This document shows positions 2,960 through 31,618 of a DNA stretch of 32,000 nt, one piece after another; the stretch's first letter is position 1; every line of letters starts with the position of its first letter. Origin of the DNA: Candidatus Saccharimonadota bacterium (GTDB lineage: Bacteria > Patescibacteriota > Saccharimonadia > Saccharimonadales > Saccharimonadaceae). The stretch is taken from positions 360,001-392,000 of the forward strand of contig MKSO01000001.1 in NCBI GenBank assembly GCA_001897305.1, read 5' to 3'. The translations under genes and the position numbers were made by a program. Under the pieces are notes generated by a model. It made no database searches. It saw nothing but the letters and a program-made list of their open reading frames with translations, and had not been told where the DNA came from.

Positions 2960-2965
2960 AAGTCT

Positions 2966-3589: not shown

Positions 3590-3595
3590 TTCATT

Positions 3596-4063: not shown

Positions 4064-4069
4064 GAATGC

Positions 4070-4669: not shown

Positions 4670-4675
4670 TATAAT
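4670..4675 (+). promoter_or_regulatory. Consensus -10 (TATAAT) exactly 6 nt before the ATG at 4682
   Basis: tataat-agatat-ATG. Confidence 0.45.
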
Positions 4676-4681
4676 AGATAT

Positions 4682-6067: not shown

Positions 6068-6097
6068 GCAATCTATGCTCTAGACACTATCTCTTTT

Positions 6098-6106
6098 TGG
6101 TATACT
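6098..6106 (+). promoter_or_regulatory. Extended -10 (TGgTATACT) about 30 nt upstream of the ABC operon start
   Basis: tggtatact at 6098-6106, ATG at 6137. This one would give a leadered transcript. Confidence 0.35.
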
Positions 6107-6136
6107 AACCATAAGAATATTAAGTGTAGAGCAAAC

Positions 6137-8910: not shown

Positions 8911-8994
8911 CTACCATGCCGTTGTTTGCATGATGGGGTAATGCGTAAGATTTGATTTTTTATTTTTTATGTATTTCTGATAAGCTAAGCCTAT

Positions 8995-9669
8995 ATGAAA
9001 AAACAAACAATACAAAAGAAAACTTCCTCGACGAAATCCATTAATGGTAAAAAAAGAAATCTAAAAATAGCAGCTCTAAGCGTGCTGGGTATATTTATAA
9101 TAGCTCAAGTAGCGTTTGATGTGTCAGTGCTGTGGCGGCACTTCACTTCCCTGCCTCAATCAGAGCCAGCTGTGGCAACGACGATTTTTAAATCAATTGA
9201 CGGCATGTACTCACCCTTACCGGTTGAAGCTAAAACAGGCACTTTGTATGCTTCGGCTGCTCGTCTTACTCTACCGGCGGATAATAGTAAGGATATTCTG
9301 TATTATTACAGTCCTGCCGATGGTACTGATTTGGCGGTTATTACTTTCACTACACGACAAATGATCGATACCGGAGAAAGCTCAGCGGTGAATGCGTATT
9401 TTACGACCTATGCAAAAAACTCCTTTACTTTTGATCGTGAAGGAAAAGCACTTCTCGCTTTTTTTGAGGAACTGCCGAGTTTGCAAGCCTGCGCGAGGGG
9501 TGTTCAGGTATATGAAGCGGCCCAGCCAGACGAAGACGGTTTTATTGCTCAAGGCACGAAACGTTTACAAGATGGCCGCACGCTCTATTTTTACACCGAA
9601 AAACAATGTAAGCAGCAGGCTCAGCTAAGTAGCCTTCTTGACGTTGTGAAGCGAGTGGAAAGCTTCTAA
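8995..9669 (+). CDS. Hypothetical membrane-anchored/secreted protein
   Basis: 224-aa ORF with a Lys-rich N-terminus, then the TM helix IAALSVLGIFIIAQVAF. No recognised motif. Confidence 0.55.
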   Translation: MKKQTIQKKTSSTKSINGKKRNLKIAALSVLGIFIIAQVAFDVSVLWRHFTSLPQSEPAVATTIFKSIDGMYSPLPVEAKTGTLYASAARLTLPADNSKDILYYYSPADGTDLAVITFTTRQMIDTGESSAVNAYFTTYAKNSFTFDREGKALLAFFEELPSLQACARGVQVYEAAQPDEDGFIAQGTKRLQDGRTLYFYTEKQCKQQAQLSSLLDVVKRVESF

Positions 9670-9677
9670 ACAAGCGC

Positions 9678-10285
9678 ATGACTGAGCACGTGTACGAGGC
9701 GGTTCTTATACTAGGCGGAGGTATTAATCTTGACGGCTCCCTGTCAGATGCCGCAAAGCAACAAGTGCAAAAAAGTGTCGAGGCGTATAACACTTTTTCT
9801 GTAAGGGTTTTTATTACTAGTGGTTTGTACGGCTATAAAGGGGTTGAAAAACCAATTACAAGCGAAGCAAAGGCGTATGCTCGCTACGCAGAAAGTATCG
9901 GATACCTTCAGCCGTAATATATACAGAAGAACATTCTCAAGAAACACTTGGTAATATTCTTTTTACAAAAATGGAAATCCTAATCCCGCTCGGCTTGACT
10001 CGCCTTATTGTCGTGCCGCAGGTTAATCACCTTACGGAACGTGTTGAGTATTTGTTGCAGAAAGTCCTGGGTCCTGGTTATGAGTGGAAGATTATTAGAC
10101 CAGCTGAAAACCTCGATGAACGAAACGTACTACGAGAAAAGAAATCGCTGGAAATGACCAGGCGCATTAATGATGCATTTCAAGATGGTGACCACCGGGC
10201 TATTTACAAAGGTCTTATGAAAAGCCACCCGGCGTACGGGGGCACGCTTTGGACGACGGAAGAGTTGCGGAAATTGCTGGGATAG
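9678..10285 (+). pseudogene. YdcF/ElyC-like DUF218 family gene split by a single-nucleotide frameshift near 9900-9902
   Basis: ORF 9678-9917 gives VLILGGGIN...VFITSG...SEAKAYARYAESIG and then stops. The frame of ORF 9971-10285, read upstream from 9902, gives IPSAVIYTEEHSQETLGNILFTK...LIVVPQVNHLTERV. Together these reconstitute the DUF218 pattern (GGG, sG, sEA, G-IP, E..S.nT..N, lVt..H..R). Confidence 0.7.
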
Positions 10286-10439
10286 GGTTGAATGGGTACA
10301 TAAAATAGAACTGATCCCCTGCCTACGTACGTATAGTGCACTATTAAGTTAAACTGAAACCATAATCCCCTTGACTCTATCGTCGCGACGCGACATACTT
10401 CTTAATCGCTCAACAAAGTAAAATCGCTAGTAAGTAAGA

Positions 10440-11171
10440 ATGTTTCATGAGATCTTAATACAGACATACATTTGGATAGGTTTCTTTGTGTTGATCGTCT
10501 TGCTTGTTATCAAATGGCAAGCAAATAAAAAGACGCCCGAGGATTCTAGTGTCTCTCCTCCAGAAAAAGTGAACACTATTCCGTCACAGGCTGATAAGGC
10601 CGAATTGGCTGTCGATGCAGCACTAAGAGGGCTCCAAGAAAACCGCTATTTCGTGTTTAGGGATTTAATAATACCATCATCATCTAAGAAAGTTGAACTT
10701 ACGCAAATTGATCACGTTCTAGTATGTAGGTTAGGGATATTTTGTATAGAGACAAAATCAAATCATGGATATATTTATGGCTTTACCCAAAGACAAGATT
10801 GGAAACAGTATTTGGGCTACAATGCAAAGCCATATACCTTTCATAGTCCTTATCGTCAAAATAAGCATCATGTCTCTTCGCTAGAGTTGTTGCTGGTCGA
10901 TAACCTAAAGGCGCCGATCCACTCTTATCTTGCCTTTCCTAATGCTAAGAAGGTTGTTATTAATGGTCGAATTGAAGACATGTCACCGGAAGGTGTTGTA
11001 TCTAAGATCAACAAGCACATGAATAGTATTTATGAACCTGCGGATATAGAGAGAATTGCAAAAATACTAGCCCATGCTGGAACGTTTCGTGAACAACTTC
11101 GCAACAAGCACGTGGATGATGTGAAAGCATTTATTGATGCTAAGGTAGCTGAGACATTAAAGCTTTCTTAG
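10440..11171 (+). CDS. NERD (nuclease-related domain) protein with an N-terminal TM helix
   Basis: YFVFRDLIIP...LTQIDHVLVCRLGIFCIETKSNHGYIYG...W.QYLG...SPYRQNKHHVSSLE matches the NERD core. TAGTAA lies 6 nt before the ATG. Confidence 0.75.
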   Translation: MFHEILIQTYIWIGFFVLIVLLVIKWQANKKTPEDSSVSPPEKVNTIPSQADKAELAVDAALRGLQENRYFVFRDLIIPSSSKKVELTQIDHVLVCRLGIFCIETKSNHGYIYGFTQRQDWKQYLGYNAKPYTFHSPYRQNKHHVSSLELLLVDNLKAPIHSYLAFPNAKKVVINGRIEDMSPEGVVSKINKHMNSIYEPADIERIAKILAHAGTFREQLRNKHVDDVKAFIDAKVAETLKLS

Positions 11172-11220
11172 TGATATTTAAGACGAACTGATCATATCAG
11201 CCCATCCTCAGCGTATCTTG

Positions 11221-11226
11221 TATACT
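11221..11226 (+). promoter_or_regulatory. -10 box (TATACT) exactly 6 nt before the ATG at 11233
   Basis: cttgtatact-agatag-ATG. Confidence 0.4.
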
Positions 11227-11232
11227 AGATAG

Positions 11233-11868
11233 ATGACTCGTTCAAAAAACCAACTGCTTGTAGCAACTGTACTAAGCGCCGTGGCTTTTCTTAGCCTTGC
11301 AACGGCGGTTGCGTTTAGGCTTACGCAGCCTTTTGATACGACTGCTTTGTTAAGAATTCACAGTGGCGCTACCCCGTATTGGGACTCATTTTTTATAACT
11401 ATTACGCAATTTGGTGGCAGTATTATAGTAACTATTGCCAGTATTCTTATTCTTGGAGTACTTTTGCTTTTAAAAAAGCGTCGCAAGGCCGTCTTTTTCA
11501 GCCTAGTTATGGTGGGTATGCTGCTATTGAATATTTTATTTAAAGACCTCATTGGCCGGCATCGCCCTGATGCAGCCGGATGGCTCATACCAGAAACGGG
11601 CATGTCGTTCCCTAGTGGCCATGCAACAGCGGTCATGGCTCTGGGGCTTGCGCTGTGTATTTTGCTATGGAATACATCATGGCGCTGGGCTGCTGTAGGG
11701 TGCGCAACTGCTTACATTGCAGTGGTGAGCTTTTCGCGTTTGTATCTGGGTGTGCATTACCCTTCTGATATTGTTGGCGGTTGGTTGTTGTCTATTGCAT
11801 GGGTGAGCGCGGTCGTACTGATAGTTCGTTTGCCATACCGGCACGTCGCCAAGGTTAATGAACCGTGA
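11233..11868 (+). CDS. PAP2 superfamily lipid phosphatase (undecaprenyl-diphosphate/phosphatidate phosphatase-like)
   Basis: All three PAP2 motifs are present: KDLIGRHRP, PSGH and SRLYLGVHYPSD. It is a multi-pass membrane protein. Confidence 0.85.
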   Translation: MTRSKNQLLVATVLSAVAFLSLATAVAFRLTQPFDTTALLRIHSGATPYWDSFFITITQFGGSIIVTIASILILGVLLLLKKRRKAVFFSLVMVGMLLLNILFKDLIGRHRPDAAGWLIPETGMSFPSGHATAVMALGLALCILLWNTSWRWAAVGCATAYIAVVSFSRLYLGVHYPSDIVGGWLLSIAWVSAVVLIVRLPYRHVAKVNEP

Positions 11869-12728
11869 AAACGATAATTCTATACAATCCAAACAGCACC
11901 GGCCCTAGTAAGGCAAACGCGCTTGCACTGGCAAAGCAGTTACGTGCTGCAGATATAACGGTTCAGGTAAAAGAAACAACTCACGCTGGCCATGCCGGTG
12001 AACTAGCGCAGGGGTATGCGAAGTCAAAAGAAGAGATAGCGCTCCTCTCGTCTAGCGGTGATGGCGGCTACCATGAATTAATTAATGGTGCGCTGAGCGT
12101 GCCGAATAGTAAGCTCATTGTTGGTGTTATTCCTTCTGGGAATGCTAACGATCATTACACGGCACTTGGCAGTGATGACCTAGCTGAAGCAATTATCGCC
12201 CGGCGAGTTAGTCGCATCGACACGATAAAACTTACGGGTACTCAGAAAGGACGGCCTTTTGTAAAGTACGCCCACTCTTATATTGGCATAGGCGTAACTG
12301 CTATTGCCGCTCGTCGTCTTACCGAAGAACGGCCAAGTGTTATGACCGAAAAATGGATTGTTCTTCATTCTCTCGTATCGTTTCGCTCTGTAAAGATTAA
12401 GGAAAACGGCAAGAACCACCGTTACAGCAGCTTGATATTTAGCACTATTCCTTTTATGTCAAAAGTTATTAAACTTGCGCAACAATCGTCCGTTACTGAT
12501 GGAAAGTTTGAAGTTACTCCAATTCGTTTTCGGTCAAAGCTCCGCCTTCTTCTCTATCTAGTTACAGCTGCAACGGTAGGTTTACACCATGGCATTTCTC
12601 GTAAGTTATATCGCTTTCGTACTATCCGCCCGCTCGATGTGCAGATTGATGGAGAGGTCTATAAACTCGACGGTAACTCGGTTGTCAGTATTGAAGCGCA
12701 AAAACAGAATTTACTTTGTATTTTGTAG
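11865..12728 (+). CDS. Diacylglycerol kinase catalytic-domain lipid kinase (YegS/BmrU-like)
   Basis: IILYNPNS...SSGDGGYHELINGAL...GVIPSGNANDH. The GTG start overlaps the PAP2 TGA stop (GTGA at 11865-11868). Confidence 0.8.
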   Translation: MKTIILYNPNSTGPSKANALALAKQLRAADITVQVKETTHAGHAGELAQGYAKSKEEIALLSSSGDGGYHELINGALSVPNSKLIVGVIPSGNANDHYTALGSDDLAEAIIARRVSRIDTIKLTGTQKGRPFVKYAHSYIGIGVTAIAARRLTEERPSVMTEKWIVLHSLVSFRSVKIKENGKNHRYSSLIFSTIPFMSKVIKLAQQSSVTDGKFEVTPIRFRSKLRLLLYLVTAATVGLHHGISRKLYRFRTIRPLDVQIDGEVYKLDGNSVVSIEAQKQNLLCIL

Positions 12729-12756
12729 ACACCGCTAGTATAGCGGTGTCTTTGTA
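12727..12756 (+). terminator. Intrinsic terminator after the lipid kinase gene
   Basis: agacaccgcta-gta-tagcggtgtct is a perfect 11-bp stem followed by a T-rich tract (tttgt). Confidence 0.6.
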
Positions 12757-12826
12757 AGCTACCCATCTTTATTAAGCAAAGGTGTGGTATTAATGTTGTA
12801 AAGTAGTCCTTTTTACGAAAAACTGC

Positions 12827-12855
12827 TTGTAATAAATAACAGCTCGCTCTACTAT
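12827..12855 (+). promoter_or_regulatory. Canonical sigma70-type promoter (TTGTAA, 17-nt spacer, TACTAT) for the gene at 12879
   Basis: -35 at 12827-12832, 17-nt spacer, -10 at 12850-12855. The Shine-Dalgarno sequence aggaaaag lies at about 12868-12875. Confidence 0.45.
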
Positions 12856-12878
12856 TAACGCAGAAATAGGAAAAGTGT

Positions 12879-13412
12879 ATGGGTGAACTTATAGAGCTTG
12901 GTGTATATCGTCGCAAAGAAGCCACAAAAACAGTCCAGCGATTAAATGCAATTTCTGAGATTCAACAAGTCAGTAATGGCGTGTATGTAAGCAGCGCCGC
13001 GTTCCCAAGCTACGACGTTCTTTCGAGCGGCGACTATTTAAGTGCCGCACAATTTGCGAACGCCGGTAACAGGCTTCGCCGTGATCACGAGTACGGTTAT
13101 GGAGTAATGAGCAGTATTGCTTTAAAGATGGTGCAGGCGTCCGCTGAATTCGGCCCATCGTCCGGAGAGACCGGTGTATTCCCTGTGAACTCTTATGATG
13201 ACGTCTATGCCTGGATACAGAAATTCACACAAGACCCAGCTTATATTCAAGGAGGTAGCCGCGGTCGCGTACTGCTCGATCGACATCTTGTGCATAGCGC
13301 CTTGTTAGAATCCGAAGGCGTCACCCCTATTAAGCCCGTTCCAGTTCCCGTGCTTAATGAGGGTGAACGCCAAGTCGTACGGCAACTATTCCGCCAAGAA
13401 TCTCATCTGTAA
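12879..13412 (+). CDS. Hypothetical protein (soluble, no recognised motif)
   Basis: 177-aa ORF with its own promoter-like and SD-like sequences. It is convergent with the MFS gene. Confidence 0.5.
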   Translation: MGELIELGVYRRKEATKTVQRLNAISEIQQVSNGVYVSSAAFPSYDVLSSGDYLSAAQFANAGNRLRRDHEYGYGVMSSIALKMVQASAEFGPSSGETGVFPVNSYDDVYAWIQKFTQDPAYIQGGSRGRVLLDRHLVHSALLESEGVTPIKPVPVPVLNEGERQVVRQLFRQESHL

Positions 13413-13426
13413 GTATGCCTACTGGC

Positions 13427-14860
13427 CTAGTGGCCGGCTGGCGCTCCGGCAGTGTCCTTGGCTTTCTTCACGAAGAAGACTACCAGAATTGCCAGTGATG
13501 CCGTGACGGCACTCCATAGAAATGCCACGTGTATACCTTGCGCGTAAGCGGCTGGCTGCGAAGCACCCTTGCCTAGTGCGTCGATAACAACACTGGACAT
13601 AATTGCCACGAACAAAGCAGTCCCGGCTGCAGCGGCTACTTGCTGCATGGTTGATACGGTTGCTGAACCAAACGAATATAAGTGTTTTGGCAATGAGCCT
13701 AAGCTACTCGTAAACAGTGGCGTGAATATAAAGGCCAATCCCGTACTAAACACTACGTGACCAATAAGCAGTACTGCCCAAGTGCTATGTTCGTTGAGGC
13801 TAAAGGCCAGGCCCCACAGTGATAAGGCGGTGAGGATTGTGCCCACGAGTAGTAATGGACGCGGTCCAATTTTGTCATACATGCGTCCGACAAACGGCGC
13901 TAACAACCCCATTATTAACCCACCAGGAAGCAGCAGTAACCCGCTACTAAGAACCGATAGATCGAGTACGTTTTGCATGAAAAGCGGCAGCAAAATAAAG
14001 GCTCCGAACATCCCCATCATACATACAACAAACATAATAACCGAGGCGGTAAAAGTAGGTGTTCGGAATGTATTAAGGTTAAGCAATGCTTTGTCGCTAC
14101 GTTGTAGGATAATTTGGCGCCAGATAAATACCGCCAATGCCACAACCCCAATAATAATGGGAGCGAAAACCATAGCTGTGTTTCCCCCGGCGGCTGATTC
14201 GCCAAGGCTACTGAGCCCAAACACTACACCGCCAAACCCGAGGGCAGAAAGAATAACCGAAAGAACATCAAGCGGTGCGCGGCTGGTTTTACCAACATTA
14301 TGCATACGACGAGCACCGATAATGAGCATCGTGATGGCAATCGGCAGCACAAAAATAAACAAGAATCGCCAACTAAGTTGACTTAAAATTAAGCCAGAAA
14401 TAGTTGGACCAATAGCAGGTGCAACGGCAATAACAATTGATATATTCCCCATGCGGCGGCCCAATGTTTCGTGGGCTTCGAGGCTCATTACGGTTGTCAT
14501 GAGGAGCGGCAGCATAATAGCCGTACCACTCGCCTGCACGATTCGTCCCATCAGCAATACTTCAAAGCCAGGTGCAATTGCTGCAATTGCCGTACCGGCC
14601 GTAAAGAGACCCATGGCAATAATATAAAGTTTGCGGGTTGAAATACGCTGAATAAGAAAGCCAGTCGTAGGAATAACCACGGCCATAGTAAGAAGAAAAC
14701 CAGTTGTCAGCCACTGGGCGGCGAGTGCTGAAATTTTAAGGTCACCCATGAGGTGTGGGATCGCAACACCCATGACCGTTTCGTTAAGGATCACAACAAA
14801 AGCCGAAATAATCAGCAAGTTAATAATAAGGCGATTTCGTTTTTCGGTTGTTTCAGACAT
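13427..14860 (-). CDS. MFS transporter, DHA2 (EmrB/QacA-like, about 14 TMS) drug:H+ antiporter family
   Basis: Many TM helices. The N-terminal pattern LIISAFVVILNETVMGVAIPHLMGDL...AQWLTTGFLLT is typical of DHA2. I place the start at the internal ATG at 14860 (MSETTEKRNR...), because the longer track ORF to 14977 overlaps the divergent yaaA promoter and start. Confidence 0.8.
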   Translation of the reverse strand: MSETTEKRNRLIINLLIISAFVVILNETVMGVAIPHLMGDLKISALAAQWLTTGFLLTMAVVIPTTGFLIQRISTRKLYIIAMGLFTAGTAIAAIAPGFEVLLMGRIVQASGTAIMLPLLMTTVMSLEAHETLGRRMGNISIVIAVAPAIGPTISGLILSQLSWRFLFIFVLPIAITMLIIGARRMHNVGKTSRAPLDVLSVILSALGFGGVVFGLSSLGESAAGGNTAMVFAPIIIGVVALAVFIWRQIILQRSDKALLNLNTFRTPTFTASVIMFVVCMMGMFGAFILLPLFMQNVLDLSVLSSGLLLLPGGLIMGLLAPFVGRMYDKIGPRPLLLVGTILTALSLWGLAFSLNEHSTWAVLLIGHVVFSTGLAFIFTPLFTSSLGSLPKHLYSFGSATVSTMQQVAAAAGTALFVAIMSSVVIDALGKGASQPAAYAQGIHVAFLWSAVTASLAILVVFFVKKAKDTAGAPAGH

Positions 14861-14944
14861 AATGTAATTTTTAGGCAACCTTACCAGTGTAATGGCTTTG
14901 GCGCTATTATGTAAAGGTTTTGCGACTAGTAAGTGAGGGCGGCG

Positions 14945-14953
14945 TGCTACGAT
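14945..14953 (+). promoter_or_regulatory. Extended -10 (TGcTACGAT) exactly 6 nt before the ATG at 14960
   Basis: tgctacgat-ataaaa-ATG. Confidence 0.4.
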
Positions 14954-14959
14954 ATAAAA

Positions 14960-15739
14960 ATGTATATTCTGTTGCATTCATCTAAGACTATGCGTAACGC
15001 ACAATCTGGCCATGTGCCACTCAGCAAACCTTTATTTAGTGCGCAAGCCGCAAAACTAGTGGAACTTTTTAAGGGCACCGACGCCACTACTATTCAGACA
15101 CTCATGCGTATCTCTTCTTCAAAAGTAAAGGCTGTCAAGGAATTATATGATCACTGGTCGGACGGGCCGGGTTCACAAATACCGGCAATCGATGGTTTCA
15201 CGGGAGATATTTATAGTGGCTTGCAGGTTCGTACCTGGAGTGATGACGATCGTCGCTATGCACAGAAACATTTGGTGATATTGTCTGGTTTGTATGGCGG
15301 GCTGCGGCCATGCGATGGTATTATGCCATACCGTCTAGAGATGGGGTATCGCCTACCTGATGGTCGCAGTATGTATGATTTTTGGGGAGGTTCAATCGCC
15401 TCGCTTTTGTCTGAAAAGCATCCTATCCTGAATCTCTCGGCTGTTGAGTACACGAAGGCGGTTCTTCCCTATGTTAGCGCTCAGGTTATTACTCCTAAAT
15501 TCCTAACAATTAGTCCAAAGACGGGCCAACCCACTTTTGTAGCGGTGCACGCAAAAATTGCGCGTGGTGCATTCGCGCGTTGGGTTATACAACACCAGAT
15601 TAAAGATACGGTGGAGTTAATAAAATTTAAAGAATTAGGCTACACCTATAACAAGGTAATGAGCACGAATGAGCAGCCGGTATTTGTATGCAAAGAGTTT
15701 AGCGGGCTTGGTTTGAGTGTACGGTCAACATTGATATAA
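14960..15739 (+). CDS. yaaA: YaaA/UPF0246 (DUF328) peroxide-stress family protein
   Basis: MYILLHSSKTM... (family N-terminus is M.ILLSPAKTM) and ILSGLYGGLRPCDGIMPYRLEM. The start is moved from the track's GTG at 14933 to the ATG at 14960. Confidence 0.8.
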   Translation: MYILLHSSKTMRNAQSGHVPLSKPLFSAQAAKLVELFKGTDATTIQTLMRISSSKVKAVKELYDHWSDGPGSQIPAIDGFTGDIYSGLQVRTWSDDDRRYAQKHLVILSGLYGGLRPCDGIMPYRLEMGYRLPDGRSMYDFWGGSIASLLSEKHPILNLSAVEYTKAVLPYVSAQVITPKFLTISPKTGQPTFVAVHAKIARGAFARWVIQHQIKDTVELIKFKELGYTYNKVMSTNEQPVFVCKEFSGLGLSVRSTLI

Positions 15740-15740
15740 T
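15732..15740 (+). promoter_or_regulatory. Extended -10 (TGaTATAAT) exactly 6 nt before the ATG at 15747; it overlaps the yaaA stop codon
   Basis: tgatataat-acgtac-ATG. Confidence 0.45.
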
Positions 15741-15746
15741 ACGTAC

Positions 15747-16268
15747 ATGAATCAAGAAATAGCACCGGATGGTAAATCTCCACGTTTCAAACCCCTTATT
15801 ATGCGTTCACCGCTACTAGCTGTAGGAATTATACTAGCCGTCGTGGCCGTATTTGCTGCTTTGGCTGCAACGACTTATAAAGATCATAATTGGGCGCTTG
15901 GACTGGCTCCACAACGTAACGCCAAAGAAATTGAATCGGTTAAACAAGCAGTTCGAAGTGCCGCGCCAGCTGATACGTTAGACATATACGTTGCCAACAG
16001 TAATACGAGCGGTACGCCATTCGGTCATGCTATGACTGTGAATGTACTTTTAAGCTCCGTTAATGCCGAAAAGTATAATATAGAGGAAATTGGTAGCCAC
16101 ATAATGACTGCTCTATTTTCAAACAAACTGAAAGACACGTATGCTATTACGATTGGTTATGATGTACCAGGTGGAATCGAATCTAGTGAGGGTGTCGACA
16201 CCCGGCCTATCACCAGCGCAAAAGATATCTTTGATCCTATCTTTGAGCAGAAAATGACGGTAAAATAA
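15747..16268 (+). CDS. Hypothetical membrane-anchored protein
   Basis: 173-aa ORF with one TM helix (LLAVGIILAVVAVFAALAA). No recognised motif. Confidence 0.55.
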   Translation: MNQEIAPDGKSPRFKPLIMRSPLLAVGIILAVVAVFAALAATTYKDHNWALGLAPQRNAKEIESVKQAVRSAAPADTLDIYVANSNTSGTPFGHAMTVNVLLSSVNAEKYNIEEIGSHIMTALFSNKLKDTYAITIGYDVPGGIESSEGVDTRPITSAKDIFDPIFEQKMTVK

Positions 16269-16272
16269 ACTG

Positions 16273-17082
16273 ATGGAATCCTTCCTCCACTGGCTACACC
16301 ACGAAGGCCTACAGGCTCTGTTTATTATTGCTGGCGCAATTATCGCTATGTACGTCGGTACGTTTATATTGAATATTGTCGTTGGGCAATTTGTGCGTGG
16401 CAAGCTCCGAAAAGCCTCAAAGCTAGATATCGAGAAGCGTCAAAAAACCCTTGGTTCACTCGTAAAAACTGTTTGGCGTATTTTAGTCATTGCTGTTGCG
16501 GCCGCCTCACTCCTTAAACTCATTCTTCCAACAATAGACTTTACTCCCCTGTTTGCCAGCGCTGGTATTATTGGAATCGCTATTGCTTTTGGTGCTCAAA
16601 CACTTGTAAAAGACTTTTTAACCGGCGTATTTATTATTAGCGAAAATCAATACCGCGTGGGCGACATTGTGAGTATTAATGATGCCGATGGGCGTGTTGA
16701 ACATATTGGTGCGCGTTCGACGGTGATCCGCGACGAGAACGGCAATGTTCACTATTTGCCAAACGGGTCAATTGGGCATGTAGTGAATAAGACCATGGGC
16801 TACAGCCGTGTATACTTTACGTTGTTACTGCAAGCTTCTACTGACCTTGATGCGGCAGTGAGTGTTATAAACCAGGTGGGCGACCGGCTGGCTGAAAGTG
16901 ACAAATGGAAAGATCGCGTGTTAAGTGCTCCGCAGTTTCATTCGATTGGTGCGGTTACGGGAAGTTCTATTGAAGTATCTATTAGCGGTAAAGTGAATGC
17001 TTCCGAACAATGGGCGGTTACCACTGAAATGCGCCGCCGCCTATTAAAGGCTTTTGATAAGCACGATATTAAGCTGGCGTAG
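16273..17082 (+). CDS. Small-conductance mechanosensitive channel (MscS family)
   Basis: Three N-terminal TM helices, then FGAQTLVKDFLTGVFIISENQYRVGDIV...GRVEHIGARSTVIRDENGNVHYLPN, the MscS beta-domain signature. TAAAAT lies 6 nt before the ATG. Confidence 0.85.
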   Translation: MESFLHWLHHEGLQALFIIAGAIIAMYVGTFILNIVVGQFVRGKLRKASKLDIEKRQKTLGSLVKTVWRILVIAVAAASLLKLILPTIDFTPLFASAGIIGIAIAFGAQTLVKDFLTGVFIISENQYRVGDIVSINDADGRVEHIGARSTVIRDENGNVHYLPNGSIGHVVNKTMGYSRVYFTLLLQASTDLDAAVSVINQVGDRLAESDKWKDRVLSAPQFHSIGAVTGSSIEVSISGKVNASEQWAVTTEMRRRLLKAFDKHDIKLA

Positions 17083-25941: not shown

Positions 25942-26149
25942 ATGGTTGATCGTGAATCAAAGCGTCTCGAAAAAGAAAAGCGCAACCGCGAAGAGTAAGA
26001 ACGCTGGCAGGAAATGTCAAAGGCTCACTGGAGCCATTGGCGCACCTGGGGTTCTTGGTTTAGCTGGGGCTCACCTATTGGCTTAGGCCTTTGGTTTGTG
26101 CTCATGGCTGCCGCAACTGCTATTCTTATAGTTGCTATTAAGCTCTAGG
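25942..26149 (+). other. Small ORF pair in one frame: an 18-codon ORF with the strongest SD in the window, an in-frame TAA, then a 44-50 codon ORF encoding a Trp-rich single-TM peptide
   Basis: aaggag, 7 nt, then ATG at 25942: MVDRESKRLEKEKRNREE-TAA(25996-25998)-ERWQEMSKAHWSHWRTWGSWFSWGSPIGLGLWFVLMAAATAILIVAIKL, with the stop at 26147-26149. A terminator follows. Confidence 0.3.
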
Positions 26150-26160: not shown

Positions 26161-26197
26161 AAAAATACCGTCGTTTATACAAAGGCGGTATTTTTTA
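26161..26197 (+). terminator. Intrinsic terminator
   Basis: The ataccgtc/ggcggtat stem (26165-26172 pairing with 26184-26191, one G:U pair) is flanked by an A-run and a T-run. Confidence 0.6.
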
Positions 26198-26309
26198 TAT
26201 TTATGTAAAAATCTCGGGTATTATCAGTAGAGAATGGGTAATAGTTAAGAATGTTTTAATAATTTTGCTGTACGCTGAAGGTAACGGTAAGCGGCATTAA
26301 GGAAAGGTA

Positions 26310-26984
26310 ATGAAACTCCTGGTTGTTGATGACAATAAAAGGTTGGCTGATCGGGTCAAGCAACAGCTAGTGAAAAACTATCTCGTCGATGTTGCGCATA
26401 CCGGTGAGCAAGCACTCGAGTATGTGCTGCATACAGACTATGCGGTTATCACTCTCGACTTAGGGTTGCCAGATATGTCCGGTGAGGACGTATGTAGGCG
26501 ATTACGTGCTATGGGCATTCAAGCACCTGTGCTTATTCTTAGTGGCGAAAGTGCTATGGATACACGTGTTCGCCTCCTTGAATCGGGTGCGGACGATTAT
26601 GTCATCAAGCCGTTTCATGTCGACGAGTTAAAGGCGCGCATTACAGCCCTTGCCCGACGACCACCACTTCGTAAGGGCAAAAGAGTCTTGATGCATCGAG
26701 GGTTGCTGATAGATATAGACGAACGAAAAGTATACCGCAATGGTCAAGAGATTGATCTGCGCCGTAAAGAGTTCGATATCTTAGAGTACCTAGTGGCAAA
26801 TAGCGGACGGACGGTCACTCGTGAAATGATACTTAACCACGCCTGGAGTACAGATAAGGTCAGTTGGGATAGTACGGTTGACGTTCATATCAAGCGATTA
26901 CGCGATAAGTTGGATAGTGCGTCGCAGCCATCGCTTATTAAAACGGTTTACGGTCTCGGGTATAAGGTCGAAGCATCCGAATAG
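26310..26984 (+). CDS. OmpR/PhoB-family response regulator
   Basis: Receiver domain (LVVDD, phospho-acceptor in ITLDLGLPDMSG, VIKPF) plus a winged-helix output domain (LRRKEFDILEYL..., VDVHIKRLRDKL, YGLGYKV). The SD is aaggaaagg. Confidence 0.9.
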   Translation: MKLLVVDDNKRLADRVKQQLVKNYLVDVAHTGEQALEYVLHTDYAVITLDLGLPDMSGEDVCRRLRAMGIQAPVLILSGESAMDTRVRLLESGADDYVIKPFHVDELKARITALARRPPLRKGKRVLMHRGLLIDIDERKVYRNGQEIDLRRKEFDILEYLVANSGRTVTREMILNHAWSTDKVSWDSTVDVHIKRLRDKLDSASQPSLIKTVYGLGYKVEASE

Positions 26985-27010
26985 GTAATAAAAAGAAAGG
27001 AACAAGTGCC

Positions 27011-27127
27011 ATGATTGATATTCTCCATACCATTCTGACCGACGCTACTGTGCGTGATAGCAAAGCTGTTGAAGCTCGGCTTTCAGCTGACAGTGCAGCC
27101 GGAACACCTTGGTTTGATGCTGCGTAG
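27011..27127 (+). CDS. Unannotated 38-codon ORF between the response regulator and the kinase; candidate signalling-peptide precursor
   Basis: ATG at 27011 is preceded by a purine-rich gaaagga. The peptide is MIDILHTILTDATVRDSKAVEARLSADSAAGTPWFDAA, with a single Trp (27110-27112) five residues from the C-terminus. It ends at a TAG 3 nt before the kinase ATG. It is below the ORF-track length cutoff. Confidence 0.35.
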   Translation: MIDILHTILTDATVRDSKAVEARLSADSAAGTPWFDAA

Positions 27128-27130
27128 TTT

Positions 27131-28537
27131 ATGAGTAAAAAGCGAACGACAGAAGCGCCCTCACGACTTGCCCGCTGGATTGTGGGGCGGCTTTCTGTTG
27201 TTTCGCTGTCAGACGGTTCGCCTCTTATTACGAAGATTCTATTAAATGCCACACTGATTGCTATTGTCTTGCTCTTTCTGTTGTTATGCGTAAGCTACTT
27301 TCTGCTTGGTAATGAAAATGTAGCGCCGCGGCTTGTTCTGGTGATTGGTGCTGTGATGTATCTTTGTGGTGTCGAATGGCTATACCGCACTGGAAATGTG
27401 CGCCGTGCGGCAAAGTTCCTAATTGCATTTTATTTATTTCTGTCAACGATGGTACTTGCTGGCTGGGGTATTAATGCACCCATTGGTATTCTGACCCTAG
27501 GGTTTGTCATCTTGTTGACGGGTATTATGCTCGGTGCTCGCTCTATTATACCTTCTACTATCATCACTATCGCTGTACTACTGGCAATTCAGGTGAGTGG
27601 AACGATTGGTATATTGAAGCCCGATCTTTCTTCGCTTTCAAAACCTTCTTCTTACTTCGATGTAGTGAGTTATACGGTTGTATTTAGCGTATTTGCGCTG
27701 GTATCGTGGCTGTCTGGTCGGCAAATGGAGGAAGCTTTGCAGCGGGCGTTAGAGGCAGAGGCGGCGTTGCAGAAGGAAAAGGATTTACTAGCCGATCGGC
27801 TCAAGGAGCAAACGATCAAACTTAGAGAATCCCAACTTGCAGAAATGAACCAGTTGTACCGCTTTGCCGAACTTGGTCAGCTTAGTACGGTAACCATGCA
27901 TGATCTCGCAAACCACTTAAATGTGCTTGCACTTGATCTTGATGATATCCAGCAGCGATCACATAGCTCCGAGGCTCTTGAACGTGCAAAAGAAAGTTTA
28001 TCGTATTTGGATGCAATGGTAGCCGAGGTACGGCAGCAAATATATGAGGACGCTTCTCCTCGTGAATTTGACGCCGTTGCGCTCATAAAAGACATGGCAC
28101 CGCTGTTTAGTAAACTGACACAACGTAAGAGCGTTCGGTTAGATTATACGGTCTCGCCTCGGAAGGCGACGGTGAAAATAATGGGCGATCCACTCCGTTT
28201 GGCTCAGGTTGTAAAGGTGTTGGTGACAAATGCTATTGAAGCCTACGACCATTCAAGCCTACCTGATAAACGAGTGGCCATTACAATAACGAAACAATCC
28301 TCAAAAGCGAGAATAAGCGTCTGTGACTGGGGCGTCGGTATCACAAAACGGCAACGGACGCGCATTTTTCATGCTTTTGAAAGCACCAAACCCAACGGTA
28401 TGGGCATAGGGCTTTTTATCGCCAAAAAAATGGTAGAAACACATTTTAATGGCACCTTGAAATTGGCTCGAGCGGCGGACTGCACCGAATTCATTATTGA
28501 ATTACCCCTTCAATTACAAAGGAAAACACACTCATGA
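27131..28537 (+). CDS. Membrane sensor histidine kinase (six TM helices with short loops, coiled-coil linker, HisKA + HATPase_c)
   Basis: Six hydrophobic helices lie within aa 35-200. The linker is EEALQRALEAEAALQKEKDLL. The H-box is ELGQLSTVTMHDLANHLNVL, the N-box VTNAIEAY, G1 DWGVGI and G2 GMGIGLFIAKKMVE. The TGA stop overlaps the next ATG (ATGA at 28534-28537). Confidence 0.85.
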   Translation: MSKKRTTEAPSRLARWIVGRLSVVSLSDGSPLITKILLNATLIAIVLLFLLLCVSYFLLGNENVAPRLVLVIGAVMYLCGVEWLYRTGNVRRAAKFLIAFYLFLSTMVLAGWGINAPIGILTLGFVILLTGIMLGARSIIPSTIITIAVLLAIQVSGTIGILKPDLSSLSKPSSYFDVVSYTVVFSVFALVSWLSGRQMEEALQRALEAEAALQKEKDLLADRLKEQTIKLRESQLAEMNQLYRFAELGQLSTVTMHDLANHLNVLALDLDDIQQRSHSSEALERAKESLSYLDAMVAEVRQQIYEDASPREFDAVALIKDMAPLFSKLTQRKSVRLDYTVSPRKATVKIMGDPLRLAQVVKVLVTNAIEAYDHSSLPDKRVAITITKQSSKARISVCDWGVGITKRQRTRIFHAFESTKPNGMGIGLFIAKKMVETHFNGTLKLARAADCTEFIIELPLQLQRKTHS

Positions 28538-30111
28538 TGACCCTTCAAGCAACCCTTCGCTCTTTGGGCAAAAAGGCCTATGGACCCGATATTTCTACAG
28601 AAGATAAAATACGACTCCTTTTACTTTTTAACGAACTTCCCGAGTATCACGAGCAGGCGGTCTGGTTGTTCGATCATCTTTCTTCTGGTGAGTGGACATG
28701 GCTTAGTAGCGATGATATTTACTTGGTTTGCCTACGACTTTTGGCTCTCTATCGCCACAATGCAGAAAGTATTGACGGTGAACACTTAGCGCTTCTTGCA
28801 AAGCGCCTTATAGAAGCAGAAAAAACGGTCGGCGGCCCATATAAACATAAGGCGCACTCTGCCCTGCAGACAAATGCAGTGATAGCGCAGCTAATGCGCG
28901 CGCTCGGCTCTTCCCTGCCGAATGTCGAGCAATTCGTCCAGCAAGAAGCCGAAGAGCATCGGCTTGTGGTGGCAACACCGGAAAACGGCTGGCTTTTAGC
29001 TTGGCCGGAACGAATTGTTACCGTTGCGGTGACTCGTCAACTACAAACCGTGGATACCGATTCGTTGCATCAAATAGTCGCAAAGCTATGTCTTCGCTTA
29101 CGACCGAGTTTGTCAAAGAAGCAAGGCGCTGTACGTGACTCTATAGATGATGCTAGCTCGGTCTCAGACCAGGTGGTTCAAGAAAGCCTGACCTACCCTG
29201 AGCAACTAAGGAGTGGTTTTGATGAAATAGTTCAAAAAATTATTAACGCTGACCATTCCGGTGAAATCCGGTTGTTATCTTCCTTTTTTGTCGAGTCGCT
29301 TAGTAAAGAGATGCAGGCATTCTGGCACGATGAAGACATACAGGCTCTTAATAAAGCTACCCTTCATACCTGGGTAGCCTACACAATATATGATGATTTT
29401 ATTGACGAAGAGGGCTCACCTCGGTTACTTCCAGTAGCTAATACGAGCCACCGTAAAGCGCTCGCGCAGTACTATGCTCAGGCCTATGATAATGATGATG
29501 CTCATGTGCTTATCGAAGAAACCTTTGACCGTATGGATGCTGCTAACGCATGGGAGCTGCAGTATTGTCGCTTTCCGGTAGATGTGCGCACTATAATAAT
29601 CGGTACCCTCCCTGATTACAAAGACAATACTGTTCTAGCGGAACGCGCTGGCGCGCACATTCTTGGTCCGTTGCTTATTGCTCTGCGCGACACCACGATA
29701 TCTCGGCAGCAGTACTCTCATCTTCGTCGTGGCCTAGAGCAGTACCTTATTGCGCGTCAGCTTAACGATGACATTCATGACTGGGTGAAGGATCTGCGAG
29801 CTGGCCAATGTAGCCCCGTGGTACGTTTTTTACTTCAAGAAGCGAACATAGAAGCTGGTTCTTATGCTAGTGACGAATTAATTGAATCACTGCAAAACAC
29901 CTTTTGGCAGTCGGGACTTGAGAAGTTCAGCTTAGAGATTCTCGAGCATACAAAAGCTGCTGAAGGATATCTGCGTAAGAGCAATGTGATAAAAGATGAT
30001 AGTATTTTTATTCACAAAACACTCTTGCCTATTGAGCAATCTGCGCGAAAGGCAATGACTAAGCATCGAAAAGAAAAAAGTTTTCTCGCATCGTATGTAA
30101 GCGAGGCTTAA
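28534..30111 (+). CDS. Two-domain protein: an uncharacterised N-terminal helical domain (about 270 aa) plus a C-terminal trans-isoprenyl-diphosphate-synthase-like (class I isoprenoid synthase fold) domain
   Basis: First Asp-rich motif AYTIYDDFIDEEGSPRLLPVAN (DDFID at 29392-29406). Second is IARQLNDDIHDWVKDLRAGQCSPVV (DDIHD at 29767-29781), 125 residues later. Both resemble polyprenyl synthase FARM/SARM contexts (hDDviDe...P..N; fQ..DDi.D...Dl..Gk.t.P). Confidence 0.6.
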   Translation: MMTLQATLRSLGKKAYGPDISTEDKIRLLLLFNELPEYHEQAVWLFDHLSSGEWTWLSSDDIYLVCLRLLALYRHNAESIDGEHLALLAKRLIEAEKTVGGPYKHKAHSALQTNAVIAQLMRALGSSLPNVEQFVQQEAEEHRLVVATPENGWLLAWPERIVTVAVTRQLQTVDTDSLHQIVAKLCLRLRPSLSKKQGAVRDSIDDASSVSDQVVQESLTYPEQLRSGFDEIVQKIINADHSGEIRLLSSFFVESLSKEMQAFWHDEDIQALNKATLHTWVAYTIYDDFIDEEGSPRLLPVANTSHRKALAQYYAQAYDNDDAHVLIEETFDRMDAANAWELQYCRFPVDVRTIIIGTLPDYKDNTVLAERAGAHILGPLLIALRDTTISRQQYSHLRRGLEQYLIARQLNDDIHDWVKDLRAGQCSPVVRFLLQEANIEAGSYASDELIESLQNTFWQSGLEKFSLEILEHTKAAEGYLRKSNVIKDDSIFIHKTLLPIEQSARKAMTKHRKEKSFLASYVSEA

Positions 30112-30115: not shown

Positions 30116-31618
30116 CTAATAGCCTGCAAAATAATCGGTCGTAACGCGCTGAATACCACGTGTCCGTAGCTGATAGGCGGCGCTTTGTACGAATGGCGTC
30201 GGCCCGGAAATATAGGCATCGCGCTGGCTATGGTCCGGGATGAGCTGTAAGAGTTGATCAAAGTCAATGCGACTACCTTTGAGGAATTGCCACGAGTTAG
30301 GAGCGCGCACTGGACGGTCCAGGCTAATCACTACCCCTCGGCAACTTGCAAGAATTTCCTGGTATGCAAATTCCTGCCCACTACTTACTGCGTACACGAT
30401 CACAATATCACGATCTTTATGTGACGCTTGCAAAGAACGGAGCTGAGAAATGAACGGCGTAATGCCGATGCCCCCTGCAATAAAAAGGAGTGGCCGTTTG
30501 GTGTCTTTGGGAAGAATGAAATCCCCAGAACAGTGCGTTACCTGAAGCGAGACTTCTTTATTCAGGTTTGCGAGAGCTTTCTTAAAGGTGCTTGAAGGTT
30601 GGTAAAAACGTATTCCGAGAGAAATTTCTTGGCTACCAGGAGCGGAAGTAATACTAAAACTCCTACGCTCGCCACGCAAATCGGCACGAGCATGTGGTAG
30701 GCTGAGTTCAATGTACTGACCTGCTTCATAGGTCATAGCCCGTGACGGCTTAAAGAAATATTCAAAGCTCGTTGGTGTTAATTGTTCTTTGCGCAAGAAC
30801 GTCAGTTGGGTAGCCGCGCGCCTTGCTAGGATTGCGGCTACAAGGTTGCCAACCAGCAGGGCGATGGCCGGCGTGGTTTGGATTGGGCCAATAGTAATAG
30901 GCACTGCAACCAATACGGCAACCACTACAGTAACGACATAAATCTGCCATTTACGGGGCGGCAGCGTGAGTGGTTCTACCAGCATGACGCCAACAATAAA
31001 GAGTAGCGGCCACGATAAAAGCAATCCAAGGCTCTGCGCGAAACTTGCCCCGTAGCTAATGAGTTGAATAAGGACGAGCGGAATGGTTATAGCCAGGAAA
31101 ATACCCGCCACTGCGAACCGTTTAGTTTGATAAAGCGCCATTGCTCCAACGAGCGCAACGATGGGCGCGAGTACTGGGGTGGCTACCCACCAACTCGCTC
31201 CCCCAAGTCCGGCAATGCTAATAACAACGACTGCCAGTGCTGCGGGGTTAAAAATATGCCGCCCCTTCCATACAACAACATACTTTGATGCCCCGGCAAT
31301 AAGCCCGGCGAAGAAAAGAATTGCTAGGCCCGAGAGGTTTGTCGTAGGCGTAATAATGAGCGTAAGAATTACGCTAGTAATAAGCGACGAGTCTATTTGG
31401 CTATGTACACCAAATAGAAGACTCGTTAGCCAGCTTCCTAGCCATGTGGCACTACAAGCAACCAGTAGGCTTATACATAGTTCAAGAGGGGTGACGCTTA
31501 ATAATCCAAAGCAGGCAAGCACAACGGCGGCTAACCAAATACCAAATAGGCCAAACAAGATACCCTTATACATCGAGATTGGTCGTAGTATGGCGTTGAT
31601 ACGTTCCAAAATGTTCAT
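30116..31618 (-). CDS. Fusion protein: RnfD/NqrB-like polytopic membrane domain plus a C-terminal ferredoxin-NADP reductase-type FAD/NAD(P)-binding domain
   Basis: The N-terminal half has about 8 TM helices with HIFNPAALAVVV and VMLVEPLTLPP (compare RnfD/NqrB FNPA and ..TDPVT.P). The C-terminal half has RRSFSITSAP (RxYS-type FAD motif) and LLFIAGGIGITPFISQL (NAD(P) motif). The start overlaps the ApbE stop (TAATG). Confidence 0.7.
   Translation of the reverse strand: MNILERINAILRPISMYKGILFGLFGIWLAAVVLACFGLLSVTPLELCISLLVACSATWLGSWLTSLLFGVHSQIDSSLITSVILTLIITPTTNLSGLAILFFAGLIAGASKYVVVWKGRHIFNPAALAVVVISIAGLGGASWWVATPVLAPIVALVGAMALYQTKRFAVAGIFLAITIPLVLIQLISYGASFAQSLGLLLSWPLLFIVGVMLVEPLTLPPRKWQIYVVTVVVAVLVAVPITIGPIQTTPAIALLVGNLVAAILARRAATQLTFLRKEQLTPTSFEYFFKPSRAMTYEAGQYIELSLPHARADLRGERRSFSITSAPGSQEISLGIRFYQPSSTFKKALANLNKEVSLQVTHCSGDFILPKDTKRPLLFIAGGIGITPFISQLRSLQASHKDRDIVIVYAVSSGQEFAYQEILASCRGVVISLDRPVRAPNSWQFLKGSRIDFDQLLQLIPDHSQRDAYISGPTPFVQSAAYQLRTRGIQRVTTDYFAGY

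Follow-up and report, generated by a model that had tools for sequence, protein, structure and literature searches.

Does a four-gene locus in a Saccharibacterium encode a signaling circuit that is built on a prenylated peptide? Like other Patescibacteria, Saccharibacteria are episymbionts of ultra-small cell size; most are uncultured, and their regulatory repertoires are minimal. The locus in question lies in a stretch of 32,000 nt from Candidatus Saccharimonadota bacterium (GCA_001897305.1, contig MKSO01000001.1, positions 360,001-392,000, forward strand), which we term the window and whose numbering is used for all coordinates. Four co-directional open reading frames (ORFs) follow each other here: an OmpR-family response regulator of 224 aa with Response_reg and Trans_reg_C domains (26310-26984, + strand), a short ORF of 38 codons for a Trp-containing peptide (27011-27127, +), a histidine kinase of 468 aa with six transmembrane helices, the candidate phosphoacceptor box at H257 and a HATPase_c domain (27131-28537, +), and a two-domain enzyme of 525 aa (28534-30111, +) whose start codon overlaps the kinase stop codon, read as ATGA at 28534-28537. 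These boundaries and the overlap are as given in a preliminary description of the locus, which had proposed a prenylated-Trp circuit that follows the logic of ComQXPA with unrelated parts. The analysis presented here supports this idea as a hypothesis, in which prenylation and signaling are the steps that we infer. We consider it fairly probable that the four genes form a cassette specific to Saccharibacteria/Patescibacteria, in which the Trp of the peptide would be prenylated and the product then sensed by the kinase and signaled through the OmpR-type regulator.

The proposal depends on the peptide. The 38-aa precursor-like product (MIDILHTILTDATVRDSKAVEARLSADSAAGTPWFDAA) ends in ...AAGTPWFDAA and has its sole Trp at codon 34 (27110-27112), and a Shine-Dalgarno-like GAAAGGAA was read from the sequence 8 nt 5' of its ATG (26995-27002, +). 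The peptide has no match in Pfam or NCBIfam, the ComX model PF05952 included. A hidden Markov model (HMM) was built from 28 peptides and used to search 26,655 stop-to-stop segments from both strands of 84 loci (fetched loci of relatives carry labels such as L001, L003 and L084). At E<0.01 it matches 72 loci, and every match is on the cassette strand at one position, immediately 5' of the kinase or immediately 5' of the enzyme, which is far more than chance would yield. Where enough flank was available (at least 2.4 kb upstream, n=67), the peptide was found in 67/67 loci. Almost all copies of the short ORF start with ATG (71/72), and 63/72 carry a Shine-Dalgarno-like motif at -4 to -18, compared to 10% of random positions. 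A 38-aa gene is called at the matching place in the close relatives L001/L002 and L003 as well as in L084 (JGI 3300079877), a contig that is 97% identical to the window at the DNA level. The peptides of close relatives are 82-89% identical, differ by many synonymous changes and keep the Shine-Dalgarno sequence, and the dN/dS ratio is 0.11-0.13 (Nei-Gojobori). The short ORF is a real gene under selection. An absent, out-of-frame or Trp-less short ORF in syntenic loci had been named beforehand as the observation that would speak against the circuit; what we see is the opposite, with the Trp present in 74/74 unique peptides.

Two other explanations of this region were tried and rejected. In the window the short ORF and the kinase share a reading frame, with TAG-TTT as the sole separator, and the short ORF might be taken for an in-frame 5' remnant of the kinase gene. 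However, its stop codon lies 2 or 4 nt from the kinase ATG in L001 and L003, so that the shared frame is incidental; spacing and frame differ there, and the peptide stays conserved, with synonymous changes in its codons. The idea of a structured RNA or attenuator was rejected since the region has no Rfam match, the sole one in the window being a tRNA at 1692-1762, and conservation is seen at the amino-acid level. As a separate observation, peptide and kinase ORFs are likewise in frame in L084, where the junction reads TAG-TAT-ATG (TAG-TTT-ATG at 27125-27133 in the window). The kinase ATG has no obvious Shine-Dalgarno sequence of its own, which together with the TAG-one codon-ATG junction suggests that kinase translation may be coupled to peptide translation by termination-reinitiation. 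The proportion of synonymous differences of the short ORF (27011-27124 compared with L001/L003) is 0.45-0.53 and thus below the saturated values of its three neighbors (0.69-0.84), a hint of extra constraint at the nucleotide level, for instance by RNA structure or coupled translation, or else noise from a small sample.

The 74 unique peptides are 29-51 aa long with a median of 38. M1, L9, R15 and W34 are essentially invariant, P33 is present in 67/74, T10, D11, V20, E21, L24 and A30 are strongly conserved, and Cys is absent. The most conserved part comprises the N-terminal 24 residues (L9, T10, D11, R15, V20, E21, L24) with the helix region ILTD...R...VE, while the C-terminal part varies except for A30, P33 and W34, which leaves a core of the form AG-x-PW. 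The Trp is never the final residue; 1-7 residues follow it in most peptides, usually 2-6, and it lies, as in ComX, within the last 5-10 residues. No leader protease of the type known from peptides that are made on ribosomes and modified after translation (RiPPs), no RiPP recognition element (RRE) domain and no cleavage site were identified for the peptide. In a distant clade (L059, L064, L067, L068, L070, L071, L074, L042) a hydrophobic segment replaces the amphipathic middle part, and the pattern MK.LIKK.LT.K..RN....SAFV.TV.G...PW resembles a signal peptide or membrane anchor that ends just before P-W. Topology and processing of these peptides may differ from those of the window type. Two loci, L011 and L039, stem from one metagenome-assembled genome (CBFGXJ01, SRR32277390_binner123_Refined_3) and encode peptides that end in ...LSAGTPWFDRA and ...FTAGAPWFDKAVVVDPAPSAAASQ, so that a single genome can hold two complete cassettes with different peptides.

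Is the peptide linked to the enzyme or to the two-component system? Relatives of the enzyme are encoded in 273 genomes of a scan that covered one genome per GTDB species. Nearly all of them are Saccharibacteria, with a few Paceibacterota, Doudnabacteria and members of a 'Patescibacteria group', and the provenance of the homologs thus agrees with the Patescibacteria-type host that had been suspected from the window. The cassette counts rest on 80 genome loci fetched from these 273 species-representative genomes, and the arrangement of regulator, peptide, kinase and enzyme is conserved across them. Among the 67 loci with enough flank, the order of the peptide gene is fixed in all, the regulator lies 5' of the peptide in 63, and the kinase is directly beside the peptide in 64 according to tblastn (57 by a stricter ORF-proximity filter). 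All-against-all clustering of the flanking ORFs recovered as conserved neighbors only the enzyme in 81 loci, the kinase in 75 and the regulator in 71. The next larger clusters are antisense shadow ORFs, followed by smaller clusters of an isoprenyl diphosphate synthase (IPPS) in 12 loci, a Crp-like regulator in 10 and an ABC-F ATPase in 7. This clustering revealed no exporter, protease, immunity or tailoring gene that is conserved nearby. In four loci (L005, L009, L010, L030) the peptide gene lies directly 5' of the enzyme gene and neither kinase nor regulator is found within the flanks. Since the pair persists there without kinase and regulator, the peptide belongs with the enzyme and not with the two-component system.

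The four orphan loci also share a divergent gene for a PAP2 lipid-phosphate phosphatase. Three of these genes were scanned (L005:2040-2579, L009:5123-5626, L030:5-559; all -) and match PF01569 with E-values down to 2e-16; the ORF of L010 (2887-3426) is assigned by its sequence similarity to these three. A membrane protein of 160-170 aa without Pfam match is encoded beside PAP2 in L005, L009 and L010; the L030 locus begins inside the PAP2 gene and hence falls outside this count. The PAP2 genes possibly reflect a link to prenyl-diphosphate or lipid-carrier metabolism, or else mere shared synteny. The Crp/Fnr-like regulator (about 222-246 aa, read from the sequence) occurs in 10 loci with the long form of the enzyme described below, for example at L034:3-671, and in L034 and L008 its gene lies 5' of the response regulator.

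The next question concerns the chemistry of the enzyme. An AlphaFold2 model based on a 61-sequence alignment is all-helical (pLDDT 92, pTM 0.88), and its C-terminal domain (residues ~200-525; 29131-30111, +) has the all-alpha prenyltransferase fold of trans-IPPS enzymes. When the model was compared to the PDB with Foldseek, a structural search that had been recommended at the outset, the best 50 matches listed were all trans-IPPS or Ord1, with a target-normalised TM-score up to 0.72; they comprise hexaprenyl-, octaprenyl-, solanesyl- and farnesyl-diphosphate synthases, and Ord1 appears at ranks 22 and 48. The two Asp-rich motifs that had been spotted in the 525-aa protein are in place and face each other in the fold. 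The first aspartate-rich motif (FARM) is D287-D288-x-x-D291 (DDFID, residues 287-291; 29392-29406, +), the second (SARM) is D412-D413-x-x-D416 (DDIHD, residues 412-416; 29767-29781, +). Across the 61 sequences D287, D291, Q409, D412, D413, D416 and D420 are invariant and D288 nearly so. An adjacent Trp peptide in 67/67 loci and an invariant Q409 three residues before D412 are features expected of a peptide-Trp prenyltransferase, although a Gln upstream of the second motif is also found in ordinary IPPS and alone does not discriminate.

At the sequence level the family stands apart. At E<=1 neither Pfam nor NCBIfam matches the window enzyme; the profile searches proposed earlier, PF00348 (polyprenyl_synt) for the enzyme and PF05952 for the peptide, were run and returned nothing. 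Only 1/61 family members gave a sub-threshold match to PF00348 (E=0.017), and the family profile found nothing at E<0.2 among PDB sequences. In an exhaustive profile search of 1.84 billion representatives, clustered at 50% identity, the family is discrete, with 1,856 clusters at E<=0.001 and 1,307 of these at E<=1e-30. Source names, where given, read 'hypothetical protein' or 'prenyltransferase/squalene oxidase repeat-containing protein' (Saccharimonadales, Patescibacteria). The enzymes of L001/L002 and L003 are 60-63% identical to that of the window (61-64% by BLASTP). The residues that bind isopentenyl diphosphate (IPP) and diphosphate in chain-elongating enzymes, namely GGKxxR, RRG after the FARM, and GK and KK after the SARM, are absent in the enzyme family. 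An hhalign comparison of the family with 12 real IPPS was non-significant (probability ~1%); its sole local alignment nonetheless sets the motifs where one would expect them, pairing R371/H375 with K-T/Y, Q409 with Q, D412-D413 with DD, and DLxxGxxS with DIxEGKKT. The family therefore keeps the metal- and diphosphate-binding core without the basic residues for IPP binding.

These 12 IPPS are not strangers to the locus. In 12 loci the cassette includes a genuine polyprenyl synthase of the PF00348 family (E=5e-52), and these proteins show GGKLLR, DDxMDxDDxRRG, KTAxYT, FQIRDD and GKPVGxDIxEGKKT. In 10 loci its gene overlaps the stop codon of the enzyme gene by 4 nt, in the order regulator, peptide, kinase, enzyme, IPPS, and is translationally coupled to it; in 2 distant loci it lies between regulator and peptide. 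Every locus with an in-cassette IPPS is of the long-form type. From its sequence this protein would supply the prenyl donor locally in some loci. Because the IPP-binding residues are missing in the enzyme and a dedicated IPPS is encoded next door, the enzyme itself probably consumes a prenyl diphosphate rather than elongating one. That the 525-aa protein is an ordinary chain-elongating synthase, as the preliminary description had considered, is made unlikely by the lack of similarity to PF00348, the absent IPP motifs, the strict adjacency of the peptide, also in loci that lack a two-component system, and the co-encoded IPPS in 12 loci.

The enzyme had further been described as carrying an extra N-terminal domain of about 270 aa. 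Such a domain is present, but it measures about 195 aa (residues 1-195; 28534-29118, +), and the IPPS-like fold starts near residue 200. The domain is modeled at pLDDT 88 and appears as a truncated alpha/alpha-toroid. A fold search with the window domain alone gave no significant match (best E=0.07); its list is dominated by (alpha/alpha)6 toroids, with MstE and squalene-hopene cyclase each about half covered, and sub-threshold Pfam matches across the family converge on SQHop_cyclase_C/N, TED_complement and Prenyltrans. Long forms of 620-680 aa, the commonest form among the family proteins examined, are more informative. Their N-terminal domain has P-Y-P-D-D-L-D-D-T-F-C conserved at 90% or more, together with the QW-like repeats QxxxGxF, ExxxGGPYRTW and QxxDGSW. 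A profile of 40 long-form sequences matches the class II cyclase domain of bacterial drimenol synthase over the whole N-terminal domain (9mhs E=7.9e-18, 9m7d E=5.8e-17), and on the basis of this match the domain is assigned as a cyclase. Weaker matches are squalene-hopene cyclase (E=1e-5), AstC (E=1.3e-4) and MstE (E about 0.7). The D-L-D-D-T of the long forms aligns with D321-L-D323-T-T of the drimenol synthase AsDMS, in which the middle Asp, D323, acts as the general acid and protonates the terminal C=C of farnesyl diphosphate (PMC12232559). The long-form relatives are thus predicted cyclase-prenyltransferase fusions.

The window protein differs in this respect. A D.DD[TS] motif is found in 83/88 proteins of at least 620 aa, in 2/32 of intermediate length and in 0/75 below 560 aa. 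The toroid with DxD(D/T) that characterizes class II cyclases is seen in the long forms and is lacking in the window protein. Here the aligned residues are D60-D61-I62-Y63, and because these align with DxDD the position of the general acid is occupied by Ile; several toroid segments are deleted, and the repeat element E96...G100-G101-P102-Y103...N114 is retained. Loss of DxDD and of the toroid segments therefore mark the N-terminal domain of the window enzyme as a vestigial class II cyclase domain. Among close relatives this domain is 71-73% identical, compared to 54-58% for the catalytic C-terminal domain, and it is still under constraint; it may now be structural or peptide-binding. Short and long forms provide a natural series for the loss of cyclase function.

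What could read the product? The kinase had been described as a sensor of six transmembrane helices with short loops, and six hydropathy peaks (36, 64, 96, 118, 144, 176) with loops of 3-13 aa are indeed found. The membrane region spans residues about 36-194, and the positively charged N-terminus together with the six peaks indicates an N-in/C-in topology. HATPase_c is present, the H-box HDLANHL lies at residue 257 within the coiled-coil region for dimerization and phosphotransfer (DHp), and HisKA_3 (PF07730) has no match in the kinase, so that the H-box is not of the HisKA_3 type, as had been noted; the nearest NCBIfam models are PrsK, ZraS and AtoS. Partner kinases of the other loci have 5-6 predicted transmembrane helices in 53/62 cases and likewise a box of the form H(D/E)LANHL. 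The regulator is matched by Response_reg (E=9e-24) and Trans_reg_C (PF00486, E=5e-26), and this output domain places it in the OmpR type and not the NarL type, again in line with the first reading of the locus. It is 81-84% identical in close relatives.

A candidate operator lies 65 nt 5' of the regulator ATG, a direct repeat TTAAGAAT-gtt-TTAATAAT with 11-bp spacing (26245-26263, +). The repeat is identical in L001, L002, L003, L032 and L036, and many distant loci have related repeats 47-70 nt 5' of the regulator. The repeat may act as an autoregulatory box of the OmpR type, which we regard as suggestive only. A consensus scan for promoters and terminators returned counts near shuffled expectation and was uninformative. 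Further upstream, a gene for a Trp-rich small membrane protein is located at 25942-26148 (+). It encodes 68 aa in L001, L003 and L084 with the pattern MVDRE.KRLEKEK..RE.YE.WQE.SKAHW.HWRAWGSWFSWGSPIGLGLWFVLMAAAAAILI.AIKL, and it is seen in the closest relatives only and not across the cassette family. In the window its codon 19 reads TAA (25996-25998) in place of the Tyr codon of the 97%-identical contig, and a 44-aa ORF remains (26014-26148); the TAA stems either from a recent nonsense mutation or from an error in sequencing. A hairpin with T-run follows 3' of this gene (26165-26197, +; stem 26165-26172 / 26184-26191) and is kept in L001 and L003, where the changes in its stem are compensatory. 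It is likely an intrinsic terminator that parts the Trp-rich gene from the regulator operon, and the consensus scan overlooked it because its loop has 11 nt.

Taken together, the circuit might operate as follows. The 38-aa peptide would be translated from its own ribosome-binding site, and its conserved N-terminus (ILTD...R...VE) probably serves as the recognition, or leader, region. The IPPS-like domain probably binds a prenyl diphosphate (C10-C20) via the two DDxxD motifs and Mg2+, and the enzyme would ionize the diphosphate and alkylate the indole of the internal Trp34. In the long forms (about 650 aa) the intact class II domain would additionally cyclize the isoprenoid to a drimane-like product, before or after transfer; in the window lineage a linear prenyl group is expected on Trp34, because the cyclase domain has decayed. 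The lipidated peptide, possibly trimmed to an xPW(F/W/L)(D/N) end and exported, would be detected in or at the membrane by the six-helix kinase, which would phosphorylate the OmpR-type regulator to act on the operon, via the candidate direct-repeat box, and on other targets.

Several points weigh against this proposal. The second motif is a full DDxxD and not the pseudo-SARM (NDxxx) of ComQ and StheQ, which brings the site closer to three-metal class I/IPPS enzymes, and it could therefore use a non-peptide acceptor. The flanks hold no conserved exporter, leader protease or immunity gene and the peptide has no signal sequence, so that secretion is unsupported; to our knowledge, the export of ComX is likewise unexplained. 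The peptides of the closest relatives, at the identity given above, do not show the hypervariability known from ComX pherotypes. Finally, the candidate operator repeat sits in AT-rich DNA and was given little weight.

How well, then, do other explanations account for the locus? The enzyme could be a small-molecule terpene synthase that releases a free terpenoid, with a class II plus class I-like activity in long forms and a class I-like activity in short forms. The 38-aa protein would then be a partner and not a substrate, for example a regulatory or chaperone subunit or a kinase modulator, and the kinase would sense the terpenoid or the state of the membrane. Bifunctional terpene synthases classically combine a full pair of DDxxD motifs with a DxDDT domain, the dedicated IPPS in the operon of 12 loci would suit such an enzyme, six-helix kinases are able to sense lipids, and a few members show sub-threshold matches to Terpene_syn_C_2 or Terpene_synth_C. 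However, the Foldseek matches listed are IPPS and an indole prenyltransferase and include no terpene cyclases. A free terpenoid also leaves the invariant C-proximal Trp-Pro motif of the co-inherited peptide unexplained, and it does not account for a peptide-enzyme pair that persists without a two-component system. Moreover, all characterized IPPS-like enzymes that are paired with a small Trp peptide prenylate that Trp (PMC13290415). We therefore judge this explanation unlikely, although it deserves to be kept in mind. A housekeeping role, in which the 525-aa protein would be a divergent polyprenyl diphosphate synthase that serves a lipid carrier or the side chain of a quinone and happens to lie beside a two-component system and a conserved but unrelated small protein, can be set aside as highly improbable. 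The fold and both Asp-rich motifs would fit, and a haem-copper oxidase operon found nearby in relatives might call for a quinone; but the RRG, GK and KK binding motifs are absent, the profile comparison with real IPPS is non-significant, a true PF00348 enzyme is co-encoded in 12 loci, the protein is fused to a cyclase domain, the order of the peptide gene is fixed in 67/67 loci, and the family is limited to a subset of Patescibacteria.

A different possibility accepts the prenylated peptide and questions its role. The product could mainly be an effector, such as a membrane-active lipopeptide or a factor in adhesion or host interaction, that the two-component system merely regulates or auto-induces, as NisRK does for nisin production. 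This draws on the same peptide-enzyme evidence as the signaling circuit. The four loci with peptide and enzyme alone imply that the product has a role independent of this kinase, the distant-clade peptides are strongly hydrophobic, and Saccharibacteria live attached to host cells. On the other hand, genes for immunity, export or further tailoring are not conserved in the flanks, the peptides are short and have no obvious antimicrobial features, and the kinase is placed beside the peptide so regularly (64/67 loci by tblastn, 57 by the stricter filter) that sensing seems integral to the system. An effector is in our view also unlikely, and marginally more so than a free terpenoid. We thus continue to favor Trp prenylation followed by kinase sensing.

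Comparison with known systems places the cassette near, but not within, two of them. ComQ prenylates the internal Trp of ComX. As in ComQXPA (PMC4008528), four adjacent co-directional genes encode an enzyme with the IPPS fold, a small precursor whose internal Trp sits a few residues before its C-terminus, a histidine kinase that is polytopic in the membrane, and a response regulator, and the locus has no dedicated exporter. There are also clear differences. The order is regulator-peptide-kinase-enzyme and not Q-X-P-A, which agrees with the earlier view that the locus is no ortholog of comQXPA. Unlike ComQ, the enzyme lacks a PF00348/ComQ signature, has a full SARM and consists of two domains, the N-terminal one being cyclase-derived. 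The peptide is shorter than ComX (38 versus 52-73 aa), has no PF05952 match and has a strongly conserved N-terminus. The kinase is not of the HisKA_3 type of ComP, the regulator is OmpR-type and not LuxR/NarL (PF00196) as ComA, and the host belongs to the Patescibacteria, whereas a census found comQXPA loci in Firmicutes only (Dogsa et al. 2014, PMC4008528). In Paenibacillus alvei, the gene cluster that encodes PalQ also holds a histidine kinase, and the Trp that PalQ prenylates is the C-terminal one of PalX (Miyata et al. 2023, PMC10853753). The cassette shares with PalP-PalX-PalQ the clustering of kinase, Trp precursor and an enzyme akin to a trans-isoprenyl diphosphate synthase (trans-IDS), and both enzymes cluster apart and are remote from known isoprenoid-synthase subfamilies. 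PalX is, however, an NHLP-type precursor of ~80 aa and PalQ needs a C-terminal Trp, while the Trp of the cassette peptides is always internal and their leader is unrelated; no regulator gene was reported for the pal cluster, and PalQ has no cyclase-like domain. The cassette thus resembles ComQXPA and PalPXQ functionally and is a member of neither.

Other Trp-modifying enzymes resemble single parts of the cassette. All characterized trans-IDS-like peptide prenyltransferases target Trp, as ComQ, StheQ, PalQ and the P domain of ChrPC do in their peptides (PMC13290415). In Sphaerobacter thermophilus, StheQ farnesylates StheX at the Trp that is second from the C-terminus, which adds the Chloroflexi to the range of ComQ-like enzymes (Matsui et al. 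2026, bioRxiv 10.64898/2026.08.29.745113). Like the cassette, this system lies outside the Firmicutes and pairs an IPPS-fold enzyme, with a Gln three residues before the second motif, with a small peptide that has a C-proximal Trp. In contrast, StheQ has a metal-free pseudo-SARM (N215-D216-x-x-D219) where the cassette enzyme has D412-D413-x-x-D416, it is a recognizable ComQ homolog (19% identity), which the cassette family is not, and no cyclase domain is described for it. For ChrPC, the account of Hubrich et al. 2024 given in PMC13290415 states that an internal Trp is prenylated and that the C domain then cyclizes the prenyl group. The long forms are similar to ChrPC/NctPC, as portrayed there, in joining a trans-IDS-like transferase and a class II cyclase beside a Trp peptide. 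They are set apart, going by the same description, by their domain order of cyclase then transferase and by a cyclase of the drimenyl-diphosphate-synthase/AstC and not the MstE type; relative to that account, the window enzyme has moreover lost the catalytic Asp of the cyclase and the cassette is embedded in a two-component system. The N-terminal domain of the long forms aligns over its whole length with the beta-domain of AsDMS (PMC12232559, PMC9128629), whose fusion partner is a HAD phosphatase and not an IPPS-like transferase; unlike AsDMS, the short form of the window lacks the general acid and ~135 toroid residues. Ord1 from Streptomyces is an all-alpha-helical indole prenyltransferase (PMC12510300). 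It uses the IPPS fold for indole prenylation and has a conserved Gln upstream of the second motif, as the cassette enzyme does, but it acts on free tryptophan or indole, has no peptide partner and shows no detectable sequence similarity to the cassette family.

The wider window adds some context. Convergent with the enzyme gene, with 4 nt between the stop codons, lies a gene for a protein of 500 aa that joins a polytopic membrane part to an FNR-like reductase with FAD/NAD binding (30116-31618, -). Downstream in L001, L003 and L084 follow genes for an ApbE flavin transferase and a protein of 160 aa, and then a haem-copper oxidase operon in the order COX2-COX1-COX3. Reductase and oxidase genes form a predicted aerobic respiratory module in a Saccharibacterium, and its synteny is common to the closest relatives only. 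At the other end of the window, the tRNA gene (1692-1762; Rfam, 58 bits) marks the edge of a stretch from about 2000 to 17000 with a GC content of 0.41-0.46, compared to 0.47-0.52 elsewhere. This stretch encodes NERD, DUF2726 and RNase_T+GIY-YIG proteins, a MacB-type ATP-binding cassette pair and a weak crAss muzzle-like match, and it may be a tRNA-adjacent genomic island.

In the literature we found no description of such a system for Saccharibacteria/Patescibacteria, and the enzyme family is previously unrecognized and without a Pfam model. A more far-reaching claim, which we put forward tentatively, is that the cassette could represent the first peptide-pheromone-type signaling in cell-cell or symbiont-host contact in the Candidate Phyla Radiation (CPR). 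It would rely on a CPR-restricted cyclase-transferase family, of which the long form would attach a cyclized terpenoid and the short form a linear prenyl group, and the six-helix kinase would read the product. If this is true, Trp-peptide prenylation extends beyond Firmicutes and Chloroflexi, and the long form, in which prenylation would be coupled to a class II cyclase of the drimenyl type, could offer a new way of making hybrids of terpenoid and peptide. The conserved four-gene cassette would then offer a testable handle on how CPR cells sense each other or their hosts.

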